Shown here: positions 216 through 48,877 of the stretch, in pieces | How the letters are laid out: each line of letters begins with the position of its first letter | How positions within the stretch are numbered: position 1 is the first letter of the stretch | From: Escherichia coli | GTDB lineage: Bacteria; Pseudomonadota; Gammaproteobacteria; Enterobacterales; Enterobacteriaceae | Strand: one strand, 5' to 3' | NCBI RefSeq assembly: GCF_024700885.2 | Contig: NZ_CP117016.1 | DNA length: 64,000 nt | Translations under genes and position numbers: made by a program | Notes under the pieces: model-generated | The model's database searches: none | Told to the model about the DNA's origin: nothing | Seen by the model: the letters and a program-made list of their open reading frames with translations, nothing else

Positions 216-1547
216 TTATTTCTGCTGTCTTTTGCCTTTAATACCAAGTAATTTTCTAACATTAATGCTTTCATCTATTTCTCCTTCAATTTTATTTATG
301 ATTTCTTGATTCACTAAATCTGCCTCTTCAAAAGCTTTTAAAGTTTCTTCACTAATATAACGATTGTTATAAATCAAAGCCGTTTTGGAGTTCATTTTCC
401 ACCCCATTCTTACGCATCTGATTCTATCTAATTGGGTCAATCTATATTGATCAGTGACTCCTATGTATTTTAAACTGTAAATATAGTTCCATGTGTGCCG
501 TAGACAATGCCCTGTGAAATTTTGAAAAGATACTCCATTGAATTCAATTCTACTTATTTGCTTAATTACTTTATGATATGCACTTATTGACAGAGGAAAT
601 CCTTCCGTAGGACCAGATTTTTGAGTAATAAATAAGTAATTATGATTTAAGCTTTTCGAATAGAAAGACCTATCATTGTCTATATATGAAGAGATTTGCA
701 TAGACAATTTTTTGCTAATATTTAATTCTCGTTCAAATGTTTTAACAAGTGGTTGAAAAACTCTTGGGTCTGCTGGATCATTTATTCTTTTACAAACTTT
801 CAGATATCTTTTTTCCTTGTTAAAATCAGTAATTTTCAAGTTCAATAGCTCACCCCCTCGCATTCCAGTTTCCTGAAGAATGAGGATTATGAGTTGATTT
901 CTTTTACGGCAACTGATATCAACAAATGGATTGTATTGGCTTTCAGGTTCTATACATTGCAATAGAATGTCTAAGCTTTCTTTTTCTAATGATTTAAAAT
1001 CATTATTCAAATAGAATTGAGAGTTTAATTTTGGTTTATGTTTACGAAAAAGCAAACTAACACTTTTTGATATAATGTTTGTCTCATATATTGTAGTGCT
1101 AAAATATGATTCATAAATCCAAGAAATGTAGGAACTAATTACTGTCAATCTATAATGAAGATTTTCTTGATTGATCTTTTTATACTCTTTTATATCTATA
1201 ACTTTTTGTTTTTTATTTTTAACTCTAAGTTGTTCTGACAATGAATAGATTTCAGTAAAGCTAAGGAAGGTCTTAGATCTAATTCTTTCGATAAGATTTA
1301 TATTTGATTCTATTAGATAATTTTCAAAAGCAATCAAAGTGTAAGCATTTCTCAATACTGTATTAAATGACTTATTCTTTTGCTTATATAGCAAACTAAG
1401 ATATATATTTTGATAATACAATGGCAAACCGTTTTTTGAATCCAAAATCATACAAAATCTGCTTCCATCACTCGCCATTAACTTCTTTACTGAATATCTC
1501 CTATTCATTATCACCCCATAATTTATTTTTTTATTTATAGGTAACAT
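216..1547 (-). mobile_element. Tyrosine site-specific recombinase (phage integrase family), AT-rich foreign gene
   Basis: 443 aa ORF; recombinase motifs seen in translation: ETGMRGGELLNL (box I Arg), GHCLRHTWNY (H-x-x-R), LIYNNRY (candidate catalytic Tyr). Strongly AT-rich codon usage unlike flanking core genes. ATG at 1545-1547. Confidence 0.6.
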
Positions 1548-1626
1548 AATTTTTTAGCAAGTTACAAATTTATTTGCTATTATTTTCAATGACCTTATTA
1601 CTCGCGACTCTAATAAAGAATCGGCC

Positions 1627-1652
1627 ATATATTCACCTTAAGGTGAATATAT
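1627..1652. promoter_or_regulatory. Perfect 26-bp palindrome ATATATTCACCTTAAGGTGAATATAT just upstream of the tRNA cluster; candidate operator or recombinase site
   Basis: Read directly: 11-bp inverted arms around a TTAA centre, followed by TTGACG at 1661-1666. Function unverified. Confidence 0.3.
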
Positions 1653-1680
1653 ATTCCCTCTTGACGCTCCAAAAAACAAT

Positions 1681-1757
1681 GCGGTAGTAGTTCAGTTGGT
1701 CAGAATATTCCCCTGTCACGGGAATGGTCGTGGGTTCGAGTCCCATCTATCGCGCCA
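1681..1757 (+). tRNA. tRNA-Asp (anticodon GUC), island-borne
   Basis: Manual cloverleaf fold: acceptor GCGGTAG/CTATCGC, D arm GTTC/GAAT, anticodon stem TTCCC/GGGAA with loop CTGTCAC, T arm GTGGG-TTCGAGT-CCCAT, discriminator G, encoded CCA. Confidence 0.7.
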
Positions 1758-1761
1758 GAAA

Positions 1762-1836
1762 GGGCAATTAACTCATTGGTAGAGTGTATCTCTTACAAAG
1801 ATATGGCGGTTGGTTCGATTCCAACATTGCCCACCA
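1762..1836 (+). tRNA. tRNA-Val (anticodon UAC), island-borne
   Basis: Manual fold: acceptor GGGCAAT/ATTGCCC, D arm ACTC/GAGT, anticodon stem TATCT/AGATA with loop CTTACAA, T arm GTTGG-TTCGATT-CCAAC, encoded CCA. Differs from the chromosomal E. coli tRNA-Val sequence as recalled. Confidence 0.7.
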
Positions 1837-1847
1837 AAACATAAAAT

Positions 1848-1918
1848 GCGTCAGTATTTCAATGGTAGAATAAAACATTGCCAATGTTTAGGTGAGGGTT
1901 CGATCCCCCTATATTTAC
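1848..1918 (+). tRNA. tRNA-like element with Gly (GCC) anticodon arm; 3-prime acceptor strand not complementary, so possible pseudo-tRNA or recombination remnant
   Basis: D arm TTTC/GAAT, anticodon stem AAACA/TGTTT with loop TTGCCAA, T loop TTCGATC present. 5-prime acceptor GCGTCAG has no complementary 3-prime strand (ATATTTA) and no CCA. Confidence 0.3.
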
Positions 1919-2104
1919 TTTAGTTAGTAACTCATTGATATAAAATAAATAATAGAAAAGTGTAATTTGTTTTGTAAAGCACAAATAAGAAATTAGAAAA
2001 TATTTAAATGTACAGTGTACGAAAAATTAACCAACTATGTTAATGGCAACTATATGATGATAAAATTACTCATCTAACGATCTATATTATATGAGTAATG
2101 TTTC

Positions 2105-2682: not shown

Positions 2683-2714
2683 ATGATGGCGATCTGAAAT
2701 CGCCATCATTTTTC
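2683..2714. terminator. Bidirectional rho-independent terminator between convergent genes
   Basis: Hairpin TGATGGCGAT-cugaa-ATCGCCATCA followed by TTTTT. Confidence 0.5.
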
Positions 2715-4560
2715 AACCTTGATAATCTTCAGCCTCGATACCACAATAAGTTATCATGTTTGTTATTAACGGTATATCATTACAATTCTGCTTGAAAGAC
2801 CTGCCATAACTATTGTTTCTTATTTTACAACGAGTCATTAATACTTCTTCAATGGCTCTTGAAAATGCCACAAAGACTGTTTTTTGATTTTCTATTTGCT
2901 CTTCTTCTTTACCAAAATAGGCACCAGGTTCAAGCCCCACAACGATGACCTTCCTGAACTCTAACCCTTTACTTTTATGGATGGTCATAAGAGGTATTGT
3001 TTTATTGCCAAGTAATAAATCAATGGCTTCTGATGTGTTTTCTTTTACATCTAACTTATCGAGGTGGCGAGAAAGTAATTCTATGCTATATTCTAAAACA
3101 TTCCCACTCATATACTGCGGAAAGTAAGACTTTATTTTATCGACACCAAATATACTTAATAATGAATATAAATAATCGACAATTTCTCCTTTAATTACCC
3201 GATGAGATTTAATAAACTGGCTAAGTTCTTTTTCTAACCGTGTAACATCACCTCTTTTACTTACTCCTCTTATATTACATAGAAGCTCCATTGTAGTGGC
3301 CCAGCTTTCTATGGATTTTCTATTACAGACAAACATTAGCATTTGTAAAAGTAACTGTACTACAGCTTCATTTAAAAGATCCTGATACTCGTTCTCAAGG
3401 CGACATTGTATTTTCAAATATTGCAATGCTGAAATGATATCGTCTGTATATTGTTTAGCCGGGTTTCTTAGCAGTATACATATATCTCTTTCATTTACTC
3501 CTTCAGCAATCCATTGCTGGATACATAATGCTATATATGCCCCTTCAATACTACTTTCGTCAAATTGTAGTAACTTAGCTGAACCTTCATTTTCAATCAA
3601 CATCATATCAGGCTTTATATCAGCATGATTCATGAAAGCTTCCATCATGCGTTGATAATTTATGAGGTTTTTTAATGACCTTCTATTGCTAACTAATTCA
3701 TTAGATTGTTCGATTCCAAAATCTTTTTTAAACACATCAAAAGCATTGTGCATTGCACCTGCCCAACCCATTATTCTTTGTTTTGTATCACCGACTGCTG
3801 TTATTTTTATTTTTTTACCCAAGAAAATGCTCTTAAAAATCTCATATTGCCTATATGTTGTGTCCTGAAACTCATCGATAAAAGCATAGTCATATGTTGA
3901 ATTTATAGCATTAGATAAATATTGATTCCTACTAATAATATAATTAGCAAGAAAATTAATCATCTTGAATGAAATCCTTGATTTTGGTTTTAATAAGTGT
4001 AACCACACAAACCGTCTTATCCTGCCATCAACAGAATGTTCTAATGCTTTATTATAAGGAGTTACTATATAATTCTCTTCAAAATTATAAGGTTGTAATT
4101 TATTTAATTCTTCAGATGTTAAACCTTCAAAGCCTACGGCCTCTCTTTTAATTTCTTCAACTAAATCATTATTATTTGGAAAGATTATTTCATAGTCATT
4201 TGATGGACGATAAGATTCCGGAATAGTGCTTTTAAAGCGATCAACAATACTTTTACAGAATGCATCAAATGTTGTTGATTCAAATTTGTGTCTATATTTT
4301 GTATCAAGCCGTGAGTTTACTCTATCTTGAAGATTTTTGGCCGCATCTTTTTTAAAGGATAATGCAATTATTTTTTTATTGCTGCATTTTCCTGTCTCAA
4401 TCAAGAAACAAGCTTTCTGAGCCAATAATTCTGTTTTACCTGCACCGGGACCAGCAAGAACGAGATTATGCCCTGTACTATTTCGAATTACCCTCATAGC
4501 CTCGTCTTCTACTTCTTGGATATCCTTTAAAACCCAATCGGCATCTTTAATAGTCGGCAT
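2713..4560 (-). CDS. UvrD/PcrA-like superfamily 1 helicase (GajB-like)
   Basis: 615 aa; SF1 helicase motifs in translation: LAGPGAGKTELL (I), IDEFQDTT (II), GDTKQRIMGW (III), VSNRRS (IV), TIHKSKGLEF (V), VAFSRA (VI). ATG overlaps the upstream stop by 1 nt (TAATG). Confidence 0.8.
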   Translation of the reverse strand: MPTIKDADWVLKDIQEVEDEAMRVIRNSTGHNLVLAGPGAGKTELLAQKACFLIETGKCSNKKIIALSFKKDAAKNLQDRVNSRLDTKYRHKFESTTFDAFCKSIVDRFKSTIPESYRPSNDYEIIFPNNNDLVEEIKREAVGFEGLTSEELNKLQPYNFEENYIVTPYNKALEHSVDGRIRRFVWLHLLKPKSRISFKMINFLANYIISRNQYLSNAINSTYDYAFIDEFQDTTYRQYEIFKSIFLGKKIKITAVGDTKQRIMGWAGAMHNAFDVFKKDFGIEQSNELVSNRRSLKNLINYQRMMEAFMNHADIKPDMMLIENEGSAKLLQFDESSIEGAYIALCIQQWIAEGVNERDICILLRNPAKQYTDDIISALQYLKIQCRLENEYQDLLNEAVVQLLLQMLMFVCNRKSIESWATTMELLCNIRGVSKRGDVTRLEKELSQFIKSHRVIKGEIVDYLYSLLSIFGVDKIKSYFPQYMSGNVLEYSIELLSRHLDKLDVKENTSEAIDLLLGNKTIPLMTIHKSKGLEFRKVIVVGLEPGAYFGKEEEQIENQKTVFVAFSRAIEEVLMTRCKIRNNSYGRSFKQNCNDIPLITNMITYCGIEAEDYQG

Positions 4561-6548
4561 TAAAGTAATCCTCTTACTGTTTCGATAATTTCATTAAGAA
4601 CTTCAGGACTATCATCTCTTAACTTATCGTCTTCCATTTTTGATAGAACATAATTGTGCGATAATGGTTTACCTCTTCCTAAAAATAGGTAACGATACCA
4701 AAAATATTTTTCATAATCATCGAACTCACTAATATCAATATCTTTCTCTTCTTTTTTCAAAACTGCAGCAATTGCCGATTTAACTTTATTATCATATTCA
4801 TGATCGTCATCTTTTGGCAATCTTGGCCCACCATTTTTGGGAACAAATGTCTTATAATCCTCAAAGAATTTATTAAGCATTAGCCAATCTAAATCGTAGG
4901 GGTAAGAAAAATAAACATTATAATCTTTTAGACAATTAATCCATGCCGATTCATTATCTTGATCCTCATCCCATGTATGCATTTTTTCAAGCTCTTCATC
5001 ACTTAAAGTTCCTGAAGTAATACTTAACAATTCATTTTTATCTGCACCTATAGATATTAATTGTTTGACTGCATATTTAATTCTTCCCCAACCACCACCT
5101 CCTCCTCTCTTGAAATCATAGTCGAGAAGAGTCACATGTGGAATTGAAAGCTCATTGAGTAACTTCCAAAAATGATTAACATATCGCCCTCCTAATGGAG
5201 CAAATGTTATCAATGAAGTGTCAAGCTCTATACCATTTACTTGAGCTATTTTAGGTATTACTATTTCTTCGCTATCACCTTCACCAAGTATTACAACTTT
5301 TGCAAAATAAATTTCTGGATATGCCTTCACTGCTTCTTTTACATAAGTGAAAGTATCAACATTGTCTCCATCGTCTTCATCTTCGCTTGGTAATAATATT
5401 GGTTTGACAACAGTATTTTTATTATCATGTAGACGAAAATACCTTATATTTTCTGGTTCTACTCTATTGAGTAATGAAGGTGCGTGTGTTGTTAAAACAA
5501 CCTGTGCTCGATCATTCTCAGATATATCTTCACATAGTTTAACTATTCTTCCTAAATATTGGGGTGAAAGATGATTTTCTGGTTCTTCGATTAATATTAT
5601 CGTTAAATTTGGAGGATCTAATGCTTCTACTGATATTGATAATTCATTTTCTCCTGAATTAATGATCTCATCTTCAATATCAAATGCAGATTTGACTAAC
5701 GAAAGATAAAACAATGACTTCATACCATCACTCAATCTTTCAGTTGGTAATGGCTGAGTCACCGGAGTAGGCATAAATACAGTATCTATATGCTTTAATA
5801 CATCTTCTATTCCATTCATTACTGGCTGAATTTTAAGCTGTTCAAAATACCCTCCGCTAAAAAGAGTTTTCCAATTTCTGCCCAATGAAGATGTTATTGT
5901 CTGAACCCCAATTTCTTCTTGGAACTGGTTTCCGATTGATTCTGCAACCTCATCAACCGTTGAACTCATCTGTTCAGACCATTCAACTGCATTTATCAAA
6001 CGGTGCATGATGGTTCCGGCTGTTTGCTTCAGTTGTTGAGCAGGATCGCGATAAGCAGGGACATAATGAACATGGATTTTTGATCTTTCATATGCTGTAA
6101 TATTTTTTTCATATTCTCCTATTTCCCATACTAAATCACTATCTATATCCCCTTCTGCAAGATTAGTTTTTGTCCATTTAGCTTTTAATTTTGCTATACA
6201 GTATGGGATCTGGTCTGCTTCATTTGAGACCAAATGCTTAAAGAAATCAGCGACTGAATCGTCCTCACCATCTTGCAGATCTGCAAATTCAAATTTTACA
6301 CGAACTGATAATTCTCTTTCATCTTGAGTATCGATTTCATCTCCAGGAGGAACATAAAAATCATCAACTTGAACAATTCTATCGGAGCTTTTGACACCAA
6401 ACATCCTTGTCAATGCGAGGAGAACAGCCGTCTTACCTGTTCCATTCCCTCCAATTAAGCTGGTGAATGAATTTATATTTATAGTTTGCCCTACATTATC
6501 AAAGCTCTTAAAACCTTTGATCTCCATTTGTGTAATTTTCATTATCAC
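4560..6548 (-). CDS. OLD-family ABC-type ATPase with C-terminal TOPRIM nuclease domain (GajA-like)
   Basis: 662 aa ORF from a GTG; likelier ATG start at 6542 with GAGGTG Shine-Dalgarno. Walker A GGNGTGKT, ILIEEPENHLSP (Walker B/D-loop typical of OLD ATPases), VLTTHAP (H-loop), TOPRIM-like VVILGEGDSEEIV and LLDYDFKRGGGGGWG. Confidence 0.8.
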   Translation of the reverse strand: MIMKITQMEIKGFKSFDNVGQTININSFTSLIGGNGTGKTAVLLALTRMFGVKSSDRIVQVDDFYVPPGDEIDTQDERELSVRVKFEFADLQDGEDDSVADFFKHLVSNEADQIPYCIAKLKAKWTKTNLAEGDIDSDLVWEIGEYEKNITAYERSKIHVHYVPAYRDPAQQLKQTAGTIMHRLINAVEWSEQMSSTVDEVAESIGNQFQEEIGVQTITSSLGRNWKTLFSGGYFEQLKIQPVMNGIEDVLKHIDTVFMPTPVTQPLPTERLSDGMKSLFYLSLVKSAFDIEDEIINSGENELSISVEALDPPNLTIILIEEPENHLSPQYLGRIVKLCEDISENDRAQVVLTTHAPSLLNRVEPENIRYFRLHDNKNTVVKPILLPSEDEDDGDNVDTFTYVKEAVKAYPEIYFAKVVILGEGDSEEIVIPKIAQVNGIELDTSLITFAPLGGRYVNHFWKLLNELSIPHVTLLDYDFKRGGGGGWGRIKYAVKQLISIGADKNELLSITSGTLSDEELEKMHTWDEDQDNESAWINCLKDYNVYFSYPYDLDWLMLNKFFEDYKTFVPKNGGPRLPKDDDHEYDNKVKSAIAAVLKKEEKDIDISEFDDYEKYFWYRYLFLGRGKPLSHNYVLSKMEDDKLRDDSPEVLNEIIETVRGLL

Positions 6549-8787: not shown

Positions 8788-11370
8788 ATGAGTAAAATCA
8801 ATATGAAAGAGTCTGCAAGCAAGGATCTATCAGACCACACTCCTATGATGCAGCAATATCTCAAGCTGAAAGCCCAGCATCCCGAGATCCTGCTGTTTTA
8901 CCGGATGGGTGATTTTTATGAACTGTTTTATGACGACGCAAAACGCGCGTCGCAACTGCTGGATATTTCACTGACCAAACGCGGTGCTTCGGCGGGAGAG
9001 CCGATCCCGATGGCGGGGATCCCCTACCATGCGGTGGAAAACTACCTCGCCAAACTGGTGAATCAGGGCGAGTCCGTTGCCATCTGCGAACAAATTGGCG
9101 ATCCGGCGACCAGCAAAGGTCCGGTTGAGCGCAAAGTTGTGCGTATCGTTACGCCAGGCACCATCAGCGATGAAGCCCTGTTGCAGGAGCGTCAGGACAA
9201 CCTGCTGGCGGCTATCTGGCAGGACAGCAAAGGTTTCGGCTACGCGACGCTGGATATCAGTTCCGGGCGTTTTCGCCTGAGCGAACCGGCTGACCGCGAA
9301 ACGATGGCGGCAGAGCTGCAACGCACTAATCCGGCAGAGCTGTTGTATGCAGAAAATTTCGCCGAGATGTCGCTGATTGAAGGTCGTCGCGGACTGCGCC
9401 GTCGCCCGCTATGGGAGTTTGAAATCGACACCGCGCGCCAGCAGTTGAATCTGCAATTTGGCACCCGCGATCTGGTCGGTTTTGGCGTCGAGAACGCGCC
9501 GCGCGGACTTTGTGCTGCCGGTTGTCTGTTGCAGTATGCGAAAGATACCCAACGTACGACTCTGCCGCATATTCGTTCCATCACCATGGAACGTGAGCAG
9601 GACAGCATCATTATGGATGCCGCGACGCGTCGTAATCTGGAAATCACCCAGAACCTGGCGGGTGGTGCGGAAAATACGCTGGCTTCTGTGCTCGACTGCA
9701 CCGTCACGCCGATGGGCAGCCGTATGCTGAAACGCTGGCTGCATATGCCAGTGCGCGATACCCGCGTCTTGCTTGAGCGCCAGCAAACTATTGGCGCATT
9801 GCAGGATTTCACCGCCGAGCTGCAGCCGGTACTGCGTCAGGTCGGCGACCTGGAACGTATTCTGGCGCGTCTGGCTTTACGAACTGCTCGCCCACGCGAT
9901 CTGGCCCGTATGCGTCACGCTTTCCAGCAACTGCCGGAGCTGCGTGCGCTATTAGAAAATGTCGATAGCGCTCCGGTACAGGCGCTGCGTGAAAAAATGG
10001 GCGAGTTTGCCGAGCTGCGCGATCTGCTGGAGCGAGCAATCATCGACACACCGCCAGTGCTGGTACGCGACGGTGGTGTTATCGCACCGGGCTATAACGA
10101 AGAGCTGGATGAGTGGCGCGCGCTGGCTGACGGCGCGACCGATTATCTGGAGCGTCTGGAAGTCCGCGAGCGTGAACGTACTGGCCTGGACACCCTGAAA
10201 GTCGGCTTTAACGCGGTTCATGGTTATTACATTCAGATCAGCCGTGGACAAAGCCATCTGGCACCCATCAATTACATGCGTCGCCAGACGCTGAAAAACG
10301 CCGAGCGCTACATTATTCCAGAGCTAAAAGAGTACGAAGACAAAGTTCTCACTTCAAAAGGCAAAGCACTGGCACTGGAAAAACAGCTTTATGAAGAGTT
10401 GTTCGACCTGCTGTTGCCGCATCTGGAAGCGTTGCAACAGAGCGCGAGCGCGCTGGCGGAACTCGACGTGCTGGTGAACCTGGCAGAACGGGCCTATACG
10501 CTGAACTACACCTGCCCGACCTTTATTGATAAACCGGGTATTCGCATCACCGAAGGCCGCCATCCGGTGGTTGAACAGGTGCTGAATGAGCCGTTTATCG
10601 CCAACCCGCTGAACCTGTCGCCGCAGCGTCGCATGTTGATCATTACCGGTCCGAATATGGGCGGTAAAAGTACCTATATGCGCCAGACCGCACTGATTGC
10701 GCTGATGGCCTACATCGGCAGCTATGTACCGGCACAAAAAGTCGAGATTGGACCTATCGATCGCATCTTTACCCGCGTAGGGGCAGCGGATGATCTGGCA
10801 TCCGGGCGTTCAACCTTTATGGTGGAAATGACCGAAACCGCCAATATTTTACATAACGCCACCGAGTACAGTCTGGTGCTGATGGATGAGATTGGGCGCG
10901 GGACGTCCACTTACGATGGTCTGTCGCTGGCGTGGGCGTGCGCGGAAAATCTGGCGAATAAGATTAAAGCGTTGACACTGTTTGCCACCCACTATTTCGA
11001 GCTGACCCAGTTACCGGAGAAAATGGAAGGCGTCGCCAACGTGCATCTCGATGCGCTGGAGCACGGCGACACCATTGCCTTTATGCACAGCGTGCAGGAT
11101 GGCGCGGCGAGCAAAAGCTACGGCCTGGCGGTTGCAGCTCTGGCAGGCGTGCCAAAAGAGGTTATTAAGCGCGCACGGCAAAAACTGCGTGAGCTGGAAA
11201 GCATTTCGCCGAACGCCGCCGCTACGCAAGTGGATGGTACGCAAATGTCTTTGCTGTCAGTGCCAGAAGAAACGTCGCCTGCGGTCGAGGCACTGGAAAA
11301 CCTCGACCCGGATTCACTGACTCCGCGTCAGGCGCTGGAGTGGATTTATCGCTTGAAGAGTCTGGTGTAA
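8788..11370 (+). CDS. mutS: DNA mismatch repair protein MutS, with a non-K-12 N-terminus
   Basis: 860 aa; near-identical to E. coli MutS from about residue 17 (HTPMMQQYL...). First ~16 residues ([16 protein letters not shown]) differ from the K-12 N-terminus (MSAIENFDA, from memory). Confidence 0.95.
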
Positions 11371-32348: not shown

Positions 32349-32501
32349 CTACTTCTTCGATTCGTAAGCGAGAACTGCCTTAAACTCCATACCACGTTCT
32401 CTGATACTCAACTCACACAACGAGTCGCCTACCATCAGCGTGAATCCCAGTACTGTACAACACAGTACGATGATTGCCACAAGGGCATATTTTGTCAGCA
32501 T
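32349..32501 (-). CDS. Hok/Gef-family type I toxin (small membrane peptide), apparently intact
   Basis: 50 aa [53 protein letters not shown] with the SLCE...AYES signature of Hok/Gef toxins; GGAGG Shine-Dalgarno 6 nt upstream. Not in the ORF track (under 60 aa). Confidence 0.6.
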
Positions 32502-32765
32502 GTCTTGCCTCCCTGCAAAGAAGAGACTAACATTCGAATTGCTTAGGTTCGAACGCTGGCCTCAGGTTGATAGAAATATCGCCTGGGGCTTTTGTCCATC
32601 TGGAACCTCGCGAATGCTTAACGCCAGACAGCCTCAAGCACCCAACTCCATTCTATACCTGTTAATTCTCCCTGCGATGTTCACCTTTAAATGCCGGAAT
32701 GCTGCTCGCAAAATAAAAACGCCCCCATCATTTCTGACAGAGGCGTTTAATTTATCCGGCAATAT

Positions 32766-48605: not shown

Positions 48606-48877
48606 TGGTTATCCCCGCTGACGCGGGGAACTCGCCAGTGCCTGGTCATATGTGTAACACCTATCCGGTTTATCCCCGCTCGCGCGGGGAACTCTTGCTG
48701 TATAGAGATTATCGGCGTGGGATTGTCGGTTTATCCCCGCTCGCGCGGGGAACTCGTTTGCGGCTTGCAAACATTTTAATGCGTATTCGGTTTATCCCCG
48801 CTCGCGCGGGGAACTCCCAGCCCGACACAAATAATGCAGCATTGCGCGCGGTTTATCCCCGCTCGCGCGGGGAACTC
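48606..48877 (-). CRISPR. Orphan type I-E-like CRISPR array: 4 intact 29-bp repeats plus 1 degenerate terminal repeat, four 32-bp spacers; AT-rich leader on the right (transcribed on minus strand)
   Basis: Repeats CGGTTTATCCCCGCTCGCGCGGGGAACTC at 48666-48694, 48727-48755, 48788-48816, 48849-48877; degenerate copy at 48606-48633. Spacers at 48634-48665, 48695-48726, 48756-48787, 48817-48848. Reverse complement matches the E. coli I-E repeat except one loop base. No cas genes in the window. Confidence 0.9.

Follow-up and report, generated by a model that had tools for sequence, protein, structure and literature searches.

This analysis concerns two tRNA genes, and the recombination site beside them, in a stretch of 64,000 nucleotides (nt) from Escherichia coli (assembly GCF_024700885.2, contig NZ_CP117016.1), which we call the window. 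ARAGORN calls two tRNA genes in the whole of it and no more, tRNA-Asp(GUC) at 1681-1757 and tRNA-Val(UAC) at 1762-1836, both on the plus strand and separated by a gap of 4 nt (GAAA). Both lie in foreign DNA, in an 18.6-kb island with about 30% GC whose right part fills the window up to about position 8,800, while the rest of the window has about 52%. A perfect 26-bp palindrome, made of ATATATTCACCTT followed by AAGGTGAATATAT, stands to the left of the tRNA genes at 1627-1652. Further left, on the minus strand, begin four co-oriented and overlapping genes whose products have 430, 456, 548 and 127 amino acids (aa), with the PF00589 domain in the first two only; the first three are referred to here as the trio, and the same gene order is found in 8 relatives.

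The first of these genes (216-1508, minus strand; coding sequence L001 10817-12109, where window position 1 is L001 position 10602) encodes a ginA-like tyrosine recombinase of 430 aa that matches Pfam Phage_integrase with E=7e-13. It is transcribed away from the palindrome and has homologues in Enterobacterales only. The second, ginB-like gene (456 aa) is cut by the window start, so that only its 5' part lies in the window, at 1-274 on the minus strand (coding sequence L001 9505-10875); its product scores 221 bits against NCBIfam integrase_1 and carries the PF00589 domain in relatives. Sequence searches of Pfam, NCBIfam and the PDB gave no match for the third protein of 548 aa. By gene order and domain pattern the trio is assigned to the GInt type (genomic island with three integrases), and not to the SE (strand-biased circularizing integrative element) or RIT (recombinase in trio) types, a comparison to which we return at the end.

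That the two tRNAs fold well and lie 4 nt apart was already the observation of a preliminary description of this DNA, and both programs agree with it. The Rfam tRNA model (RF00005), in which membership means a full cloverleaf above the gathering score of 29 bits, gives 66.6 bits for tRNA-Asp and 67.8 bits for tRNA-Val, both over model positions 1-71, and both are members of the family. Each has a canonical cloverleaf, an encoded CCA and the expected discriminator base (G73 and A73, respectively). The preliminary description is confirmed as an observation and partly supported in its interpretation. It had overlooked a third tRNA, for glycine, that is split between the two ends of the locus, as well as the nature of the block as a precise indel of 250 bp.

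The third tRNA first appears as a partial Rfam match at 1855-1910 (34.4 bits, model positions 8-63, anticodon GCC), in which the acceptor 5' strand is left in place without a pairing partner. When 1848-1904 is joined to 1655-1671, ARAGORN returns a perfect 74-nt tRNA-Gly(gcc) with 7/7 acceptor pairs and 5/5 T-stem pairs, while on the unjoined island sequence it calls no tRNA-Gly. The 5' fragment (1848-1904, plus strand) comprises the acceptor 5' strand, the D arm, the anticodon arm, the 5' strand of the T-stem and the T-loop to position 59, and the 3' fragment (1655-1671, plus strand) comprises the 3' strand of the T-stem (TCCCTC), the acceptor 3' strand (TTGACGC), U73 and CCA. The split of the gene falls in its T-loop, and the two ends of the block are halves of one gene. 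The whole block, 1655-1904 on the plus strand, is a circularly permuted Gly-Asp-Val unit of a foreign tRNA array, with boundaries that are ambiguous by 2 nt because AT is shared at both edges. The three captured tRNAs have 43-55% GC. As judged from these folds, the tRNA-Gly gene is destroyed in the island and tRNA-Asp and tRNA-Val are structurally intact.

The split gene also accounts for the TTGACG hexamer, which the preliminary description had noted upstream of the tRNAs. The hexamer is present at 1661-1666, but it is not a -35 box; because 1655-1671 completes tRNA-Gly, it is part of the 3' acceptor strand. Its candidacy as a -35 box was rejected on other grounds too. The hexamer 17 nt downstream (GTAGTA) matches TATAAT at no position, by eye, and in a promoter scan no prediction takes in TTGACG. 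Promoter-like sites were no commoner than in shuffled sequence (4 found and 4.5 expected). The intact tRNA-Asp and tRNA-Val could be expressed by read-through transcription.

The block is rare. A sensitive blastn search with it found 4 island copies among 5,426 complete E. coli genomes and no match elsewhere in E. coli. The tRNAs thus do not match the chromosomal tRNA genes of the species, an outcome that the preliminary description would have taken as a refutation had it been found otherwise. BLAST against phage and plasmid records returned generic tRNA-level similarity of at most 80%, and megablast against plasmids returned nothing. At least 9 other E. coli genomes match both flanks with exactly 250 bp missing. 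One of the tRNA-less islands, in NCTC8623, shares 99.2-100% identity with that of the window along 9 kb to each side of the site and has its flanking alleles up to the edges of the block, whereas in the Gabija region the tRNA-bearing island of strain 4/4 reaches only 72-89% identity to the window island. The presence of the block therefore does not track the phylogeny of the islands, and within one island haplotype the block was precisely gained or lost.

The palindrome marks the place where this happened. It is the longest in the window, a length of 26 bp was reached in 2 of 200 composition-preserving block shuffles, and its hairpin z-score is -4.9. It was correctly described as a perfect palindrome upstream of the tRNAs, but it does not belong to them, as tRNA-less relatives down to 42% protein identity have its 16-bp core, TTCACCTTAAGGTGAA, unchanged ahead of the first recombinase gene. 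We describe the site as three 12-nt arms with the consensus AAGGT[G/A]AA[T/A]ATA. Arms a (1627-1639) and b (1640-1651/2) abut and form the palindrome, and arm c is inverted with respect to b, with 11/12 positions matching between arm c and the inverted arm b. Between b and c lies an 8-bp central region, the place of strand exchange, which is TATCCCCC in the empty site of E. coli, so that the tRNA-less site reads AAGGTGAATATA-TATCCCCC-TATATTTACYTT. Across relatives the central region, in window orientation, is TATCCCCC, TAATCCTC, TAACCTCC or AAACCCCT. E. coli and Salmonella keep this layout in front of the ginA-like gene, and so do Yersinia ruckeri, Pectobacterium and a metagenome relative, at 57%, 49% and 42% protein identity, respectively. 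Arm c is kept in all relatives, and those that have the site, at 96% to 42% protein identity, have no tRNAs there. Two inverted arms around a central region of 6-8 bp are the standard layout of a tyrosine recombinase core site. Inverted arms around a short spacer are also the published recognition criterion for the joint sites of SE and GInt elements (PMC10214605).

Two further features of this end of the island were noted in passing. The stretch at window 1554-1600, AGCAAGTTACAAATTTATTT, between the palindrome and the start codon of the ginA-like gene, is strongly conserved across genera and overlaps the sole promoter-like match on the plus strand, TTAGCA-18-TATTAT; its role could be that of a promoter or operator, or of another site where protein binds. 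In the Salmonella relative L029 another perfect palindrome, the 22-bp AATATCCCTCTAGAGGGATATT, occurs at about 1760-1800, at the equivalent place upstream of the first trio gene and directly beside the host fimbrial genes. It may be that this GInt branch generally has a perfect palindrome at the end near ginA.

In the tRNA-bearing island the block sits exactly inside the central region, and the two junctions are hybrids. The left junction (1640-1659, plus strand) consists of arm b, AAGGTGAATATA (1640-1651), followed by the central region TATTCCCT (1652-1659), of which TAT comes from the island site and TCCCT from tRNA-Gly. The right junction (1890-1921, plus strand) consists of the tRNA-Gly sequence AGGTGAGGGTTC, the central region GATCCCCC (1902-1909) and arm c, TATATTTACTTT (1910-1921). 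With a slash for the change of parent, the two can be written as b-TAT/TCCCT-Gly3' and Gly5'-GAT/CCCCC-c, which puts the switch directly behind the third position of the central region. The matching sequence of tRNA-Gly, GATTCCCT, corresponds to positions 57-64, in the T-loop and T-stem.

The natural order of the block was found in an unrelated replicon. The pattern that spans the break point, GGTGAGGGTTCGATYCCCTCTTGACGCTCCA, which is not contiguous in the island, matched one metagenome contig, L025, where the order Asp-GAAA-Val-spacer-intact Gly(GCC)-spacer-Asp is contiguous. The un-permuted block is identical to L025 at 253/255 positions. Through a pilin-like open reading frame (ORF) of L025, the longer contigs L035 and L037 were reached in other assemblies. 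They have the same array, so that it is seen in three independent assemblies, all with an intact tRNA-Gly(GCC) gene; the assemblies with the donor replicon are ERZ808232, ERZ22666027 and ERZ27263652. The block is 99.2% identical to L035, and the island tRNA-Val is identical to the L035 copy. The array has 12 tRNA genes (Met, 3 Val, 5 Asp, 2 Gly and a pseudo-tRNA) at L035 613-1600 and L037 421-1407. The two sampled arrays differ in the copy number of tRNA-Asp, which shows that units are still being duplicated.

The donor is an uncultured replicon of about 24-25% GC. Its genes include NrdD/NrdG, PTS-like proteins, a type IVb pilin-like gene and many ORFans, the last of these without a match in NCBIfam. 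The NrdD protein is 70-76% identical to Enterobacterales and Orbales proteins. A fusion protein of 794 aa with polynucleotide kinase (PNK), phosphatase and RNA-ligase parts (L035 5446-7830) matches phrog_8238 with 533 bits; its identity to the versions in phages and plasmids is about 30%. Outside the tRNAs nothing on the donor contig matches a plasmid, and the sole E. coli match is to a type IV pilin gene (107 nt, 72%). This gene content suggests that the donor is a phage or a large mobile element armed against defences that cleave tRNA. Other candidate donors were set aside. A 19-mer from the anticodon arm of tRNA-Val gave 8 matches in 100,044 species-representative genomes, none of them in a tRNA gene, which are therefore chance matches, and scans of viral contigs with tRNA-Val and tRNA-Gly patterns gave no match. 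Four giant-virus tRNA-Gly(UCC) genes with an intact T-arm/acceptor pattern were rejected as donors, since they share only 53-56/75 positions, have A73 and do not encode CCA.

Taken together, we consider it quite probable that the 250-bp block is the scar of a site-specific recombination between the GInt site of the island and the T-loop of a foreign tRNA-Gly gene, and that the tRNAs came with it as passengers. What carries this reading in the sequence is the split and permuted tRNA-Gly gene, the exact position of the block in the central region, the natural order in the donor, the conservation of the site and the precise presence or absence of the block in one haplotype. That the GInt recombinases were the catalysts, which route was taken and that the block could still be excised are what we infer from them. 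In a first step, in an earlier host, the island site would have recombined with GATTCCCT, the T-loop/T-stem sequence of a tRNA-Gly(GCC) gene. This gene would have belonged to a repetitive Asp/Val/Gly array, carried by an uncultured replicon very rich in AT. The product could then have been reduced either by out-of-register excision through the neighbouring tRNA-Gly copy of a tandemly duplicated unit, or by trimming of a cointegrate between tRNA-Asp paralogues. By either route one unit of the array (the 3' end of Gly, Asp, Val and the 5' part of Gly) would be left in the central region, flanked by two hybrid sites.

Several points weigh against this account. The flanks of the tRNA-Gly sequence match the site arms at only 3/12 and 2/12 positions, and the central region at 5/8; as a target the tRNA-Gly gene would thus have been secondary and illegitimate. 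Both sampled donor arrays have, after tRNA-Gly, a second tRNA-Asp (Asp2) that is 86% identical to the first (Asp1), and not Asp1-Val-Gly, so that either the immediate donor variant is unsampled or a crossover took place in the 8-nt identity AATGCGGT. We found no relative in which the site of this clade forms a real chromosomal junction in a tRNA-Gly gene. The recombinase role of the trio is itself deduced from sequence. Lastly, an IS1 element interrupts the ginC-like gene in the window strain and leaves 468 aa instead of 548 (L001 7480-8177, outside the window). It has probably inactivated the recombination module, and the tRNA block is therefore probably now fixed in this strain. CFSAN061761/MLI114 have IS1 in the ginC-like gene, which is intact in strains 4/4 and Ecol_542.

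The poor match of the tRNA-Gly flanks to the island arms could also be taken as a sign that the catalyst came from the other side, that is, that an integrase of the donor replicon with its att site in its own tRNA-Gly gene, an arrangement known from many phages and islands that target tRNAs, used the island as a secondary target. The T-loop/T-stem 3' region of tRNA genes is a classic target of P4-type integrases, which counts in favour of this idea. We nevertheless regard it as very unlikely. It would make a coincidence of the position of the crossover, exactly in the 8-bp central region between conserved inverted arms. In L035, L036 and L037 the 10 kb or so to each side of the donor array contain no called integrase gene, and the precise gain or loss occurred in one E. 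coli haplotype, where only the island recombinases are known to be present.

The edges of the block, ATTCCCT and ATCCCCC, are similar over a short length, and this raises a different possibility, in which the block is ancestral and the tRNA-less islands arose from it by slippage or microhomology deletions between the TCCC motifs. We find this extremely improbable, as all tRNA-less islands share one identical junction, including E. coli lineages at 84% nucleotide identity, and the same junction, a symmetric arm-central-arm site, recurs in other genera in relatives at 57-42% protein identity. Deletion would also leave unexplained why the ends of the block are halves of one tRNA gene, and why its un-permuted order is found at 99% identity in an unrelated replicon.

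A separate matter, which concerns function and is compatible with origin by capture, is whether the tRNAs are of use to the island. The preliminary description had suggested that such tRNAs offset a mismatch in codon usage or allow escape from defences that target tRNAs. The first of these suggestions is not supported here. The codons most enriched in the island relative to the host are AGG (13.6x), AGA (12.1x) and AUA (9.6x), and not those of Asp and Val, for which the values are 1.31x (GAU), 0.53x (GAC) and 1.37x (GUA); Asp codons overall are used at the host rate. The tRNAs thus do not decode codons that the element over-uses and that are rare in the host, as codon-compensating tRNAs would. 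Both tRNA-Asp(GUC) and tRNA-Val(UAC) are multi-copy and abundant in E. coli. Escape from tRNA-targeting defences may apply to the donor replicon, with its array of 12 tRNAs and its tRNA-repair-type enzyme; for the island it has no support. Colicin E5 is an agent that cleaves tRNA-Asp.

An adaptive supplement, with Asp and Val kept for the translation of AT-rich genes or as replacements for host tRNAs cleaved by anticodon nucleases or colicins, is in our view quite unlikely. It has some evidence on its side, as both tRNAs are canonical, with encoded CCA and correct discriminators, and the window copy of tRNA-Asp has a T27-A43 pair at a place where C27 and A43 are mismatched in the donor and in strain 4/4. 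The PNK/phosphatase/RNA-ligase enzyme beside the donor array suggests a tRNA-centred conflict in the donor, and outward transcription from the ends of GInts has been reported (PMC5385486). Against it stand the codon usage described above, where the mismatches of the island lie in AGG, AGA and AUA (9.6-13.6x) and GUA reaches only 1.37x, and a promoter signal at chance level. The block is found in 4/5,426 genomes and is missing from most islands of the same family, including one that is 99.9% identical, and one of the three captured tRNAs is destroyed. An identity of 99% to the donor leaves too little time for selection to be read from the intact genes. Passenger DNA fits a block that is rare, that a near-identical island lacks and whose third tRNA is destroyed, so that the tRNAs look like structurally intact captured passengers with no adaptive role indicated, though a benefit is conceivable.

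The island itself is found between ygbA and mutS. Aligned with the empty site of K-12, it is a single clean insertion inside codon ~17 of mutS, and the 18.6-kb element is bordered on both sides by imperfect 24-bp direct repeats of the mutS 5' end, the right copy of which (an att site and the island boundary; repeat family D14, K-12 alignment) is at 8835-8858 on the plus strand. The island supplies mutS with a replacement 5' end, a new promoter-proximal region and an N-terminus unlike that of K-12 (window 8803-8858), and the original mutS start is orphaned at the far, ygbA end of the island (L001 796-845). A fourth tyrosine integrase of 487 aa with PF00589 (7192-8655, minus strand) lies at the mutS end and is presumed to mediate the chromosomal integration of the island. 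An origin of the internal site from two tandem or nested elements was rejected, as the mutS repeat occurs twice only and the comparison with K-12 gives a single clean insertion. No second copy of the palindrome or of its arms was found in the island.

Besides the four overlapping genes and the fourth integrase, the island carries a relaxase gene, a 191-aa ORF and a Gabija system. The ORF, beside the site at 2105-2680 on the plus strand, is a conserved backbone gene for which profile searches gave no family match. The Gabija cargo (2713-6542, minus strand) consists of gajB (2713-4560) and gajA (4560-6542), a UvrD-like helicase and an ATPase-TOPRIM nuclease, which is the pair that defines the system; PADLOC scores them at 658.8 bits (GajB) and 798.1 bits (GajA), full length and in adjacent genes. 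Other E. coli strains have the same backbone at the same mutS site with other cargo, namely Qat and retron Ec48 in one and a HerA-type system in another. ThsB-TIR is the cargo of a further related island at mutS, and the cargo of the Y. ruckeri relative includes Lamassu LmuB and DUF4238. Since the defence cargo differs between related islands, the backbone is a carrier of such cargo, and the window element is a mobilizable defence island that was integrated in the mutS 5' end, probably by its own fourth integrase. Integration at mutS is seen in both E. coli and Salmonella, and the Pectobacterium island lies beside a P4-type integrase next to tRNA-Gly(CCC). Elsewhere in the window we noted a sok antitoxin RNA of a hok/sok-type toxin-antitoxin locus (32486-32643, minus strand; Rfam RF01794, 111.7 bits) and a short CRISPR array (48666-48875, minus strand) with at least 4 type I-E-like repeats, GTTCCCCGCGCGAGCGGGGATAAACCG, at a period of 61 bp.

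The value of the locus lies in the record of the site and in a testable substrate, and not in the tRNAs themselves. GInts are widespread and have been reported from 7.5% of Escherichia replicons (PMC10214605), yet both the sites they use and the way they choose targets are poorly defined. The locus is a natural record, at base-pair resolution, of a GInt-type site crossed with a tRNA T-loop, in which the crossover is mapped to the 8-bp central region. As a substrate pair one could take the three-arm site with the donor tRNA-Gly, or else the two hybrid junctions. It also shows that tRNAs in an island can arrive as by-products of recombination, which calls for caution before every island tRNA is explained by codon usage or anti-defence. 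An intact GInt joint site inside islands that were integrated by a separate integrase is an unreported architecture, and it raises the question of what the trio is for. One answer, which is speculative and which we hold to be doubtful, is that the GInt module in this family of defence islands of Enterobacterales is not the machinery of chromosomal integration and that the internal three-arm site is a standing platform for docking and capture. If this were true, the site would recombine with T-loop-like sequences on other replicons, such as pilus-encoding conjugative elements and phages with tRNA arrays. Cointegrates would let the island hitch a ride, and small units such as the 250-bp tRNA cassette could be held and released in the manner of an integron.

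Comparison with known systems can help to place both the block and the module. The tRNA arrays of phages and mobile elements resemble the donor, with its 12 AT-rich tRNA genes, many paralogues, a pseudo-tRNA and neighbouring genes of nucleotide metabolism and RNA repair. The island differs from them in that it holds a 250-bp fragment only, with one gene broken and species unsuited to its codon needs. Aberrant excision of lambda at gal and bio and capture at the attI site of integrons share with our locus a tyrosine recombinase site with adjacent foreign DNA bounded by hybrid sites, and an insert that could in principle be excised again as a small circle. Here, unlike in either, both captured ends lie in the same gene, tRNA-Gly, which means that exactly one repeat unit was taken, and there is no attC-type site, IntI-type integrase or captured ORF. 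The module does not belong to the integrons, since its best score against XerA and integron-integrase models is 45 bits with a cut-off of 220, and the block lacks an attC-like element and ends in halves of a tRNA gene. It is also not the gamma-mobile-trio of NCBIfam (GmtY, 26.8 bits with a curated cut-off of 340). It falls outside the RIT elements as well, as the third protein has no recombinase domain match and is 548 aa long, and a repeat search of the island found no flanking terminal inverted repeats.

The SE elements (intA-tfp-intB-srap) and Tn554 come closer. Shared features are imperfect inverted repeats around a short spacer, which both GInt and SE joint sites have (PMC10214605), an auxiliary small protein, and short sequences that are carried from one site to the next. 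The non-catalytic fold protein, however, is second in SE and third in the island, the central region of the island site has 8 bp if the arms are taken as 12 nt, and the published clustering that separates SE from GInt places proteins of the island type under GInt (PMC10214605). By gene order and by this listing, the module is not an SE.

The closest system is GInt (ginABCD; Bardaji et al. 2017, PMC5385486; Nonaka et al. 2023, PMC10214605), with which the module shares two PF00589 recombinases, a protein of about 550 aa without a detectable catalytic domain and one of about 125 aa. Judged from domain matches, it has the GInt operon of two catalytic tyrosine recombinases, a larger non-catalytic fold protein and a small protein. 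Its relatedness to GinC and GinD of the reference GInt of P. stutzeri DSM 4166 follows from the published listing, as WP_078207318/WP_078207319 (NZ_CP018970.1, Ecol_542, tRNA-bearing) stand in the GInt ginC-ginD synteny table (Additional file 10, PMC10214605), and WP_001547657/WP_001547656 likewise in that table. The AT-rich DNA and the variable cargo, here defence systems, are shared too. The position in the island is different. In a GInt the gin operon lies at the 5' end of the integrated island, with attL immediately upstream of ginA and attR at the far end, and all four gin genes are needed for excision as a circle and for integration. For such mobility here, the precise presence or absence of the block in one island haplotype is indirect evidence. 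In this island the site is in the joint form, with its arms adjacent, 7.2 kb inside an element whose ends are the 24-bp mutS repeats; L029 from Salmonella, at 37% identity, is in the canonical end-of-element position next to host fimbrial genes. Described GInts have the joint site in the excised circle only, and that of the island is intact and internal. The island is also integrated elsewhere, in the mutS 5' end (in Pectobacterium at a tRNA gene), and next to a separate fourth integrase. Neither PMC5385486 nor PMC10214605 mentions a three-arm site with a perfect 26-bp palindrome or the capture of foreign DNA in the central region. What the island does have in common with the published elements is the behaviour of the overlap, since non-identical overlaps are tolerated and either parental overlap may be kept at the junctions. 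GInts are reported to recombine despite overlaps that are not identical, and half of the products to keep the 6-nt overhang of the partner (PMC5385486), which agrees with the pattern of the hybrid junctions at the island site.

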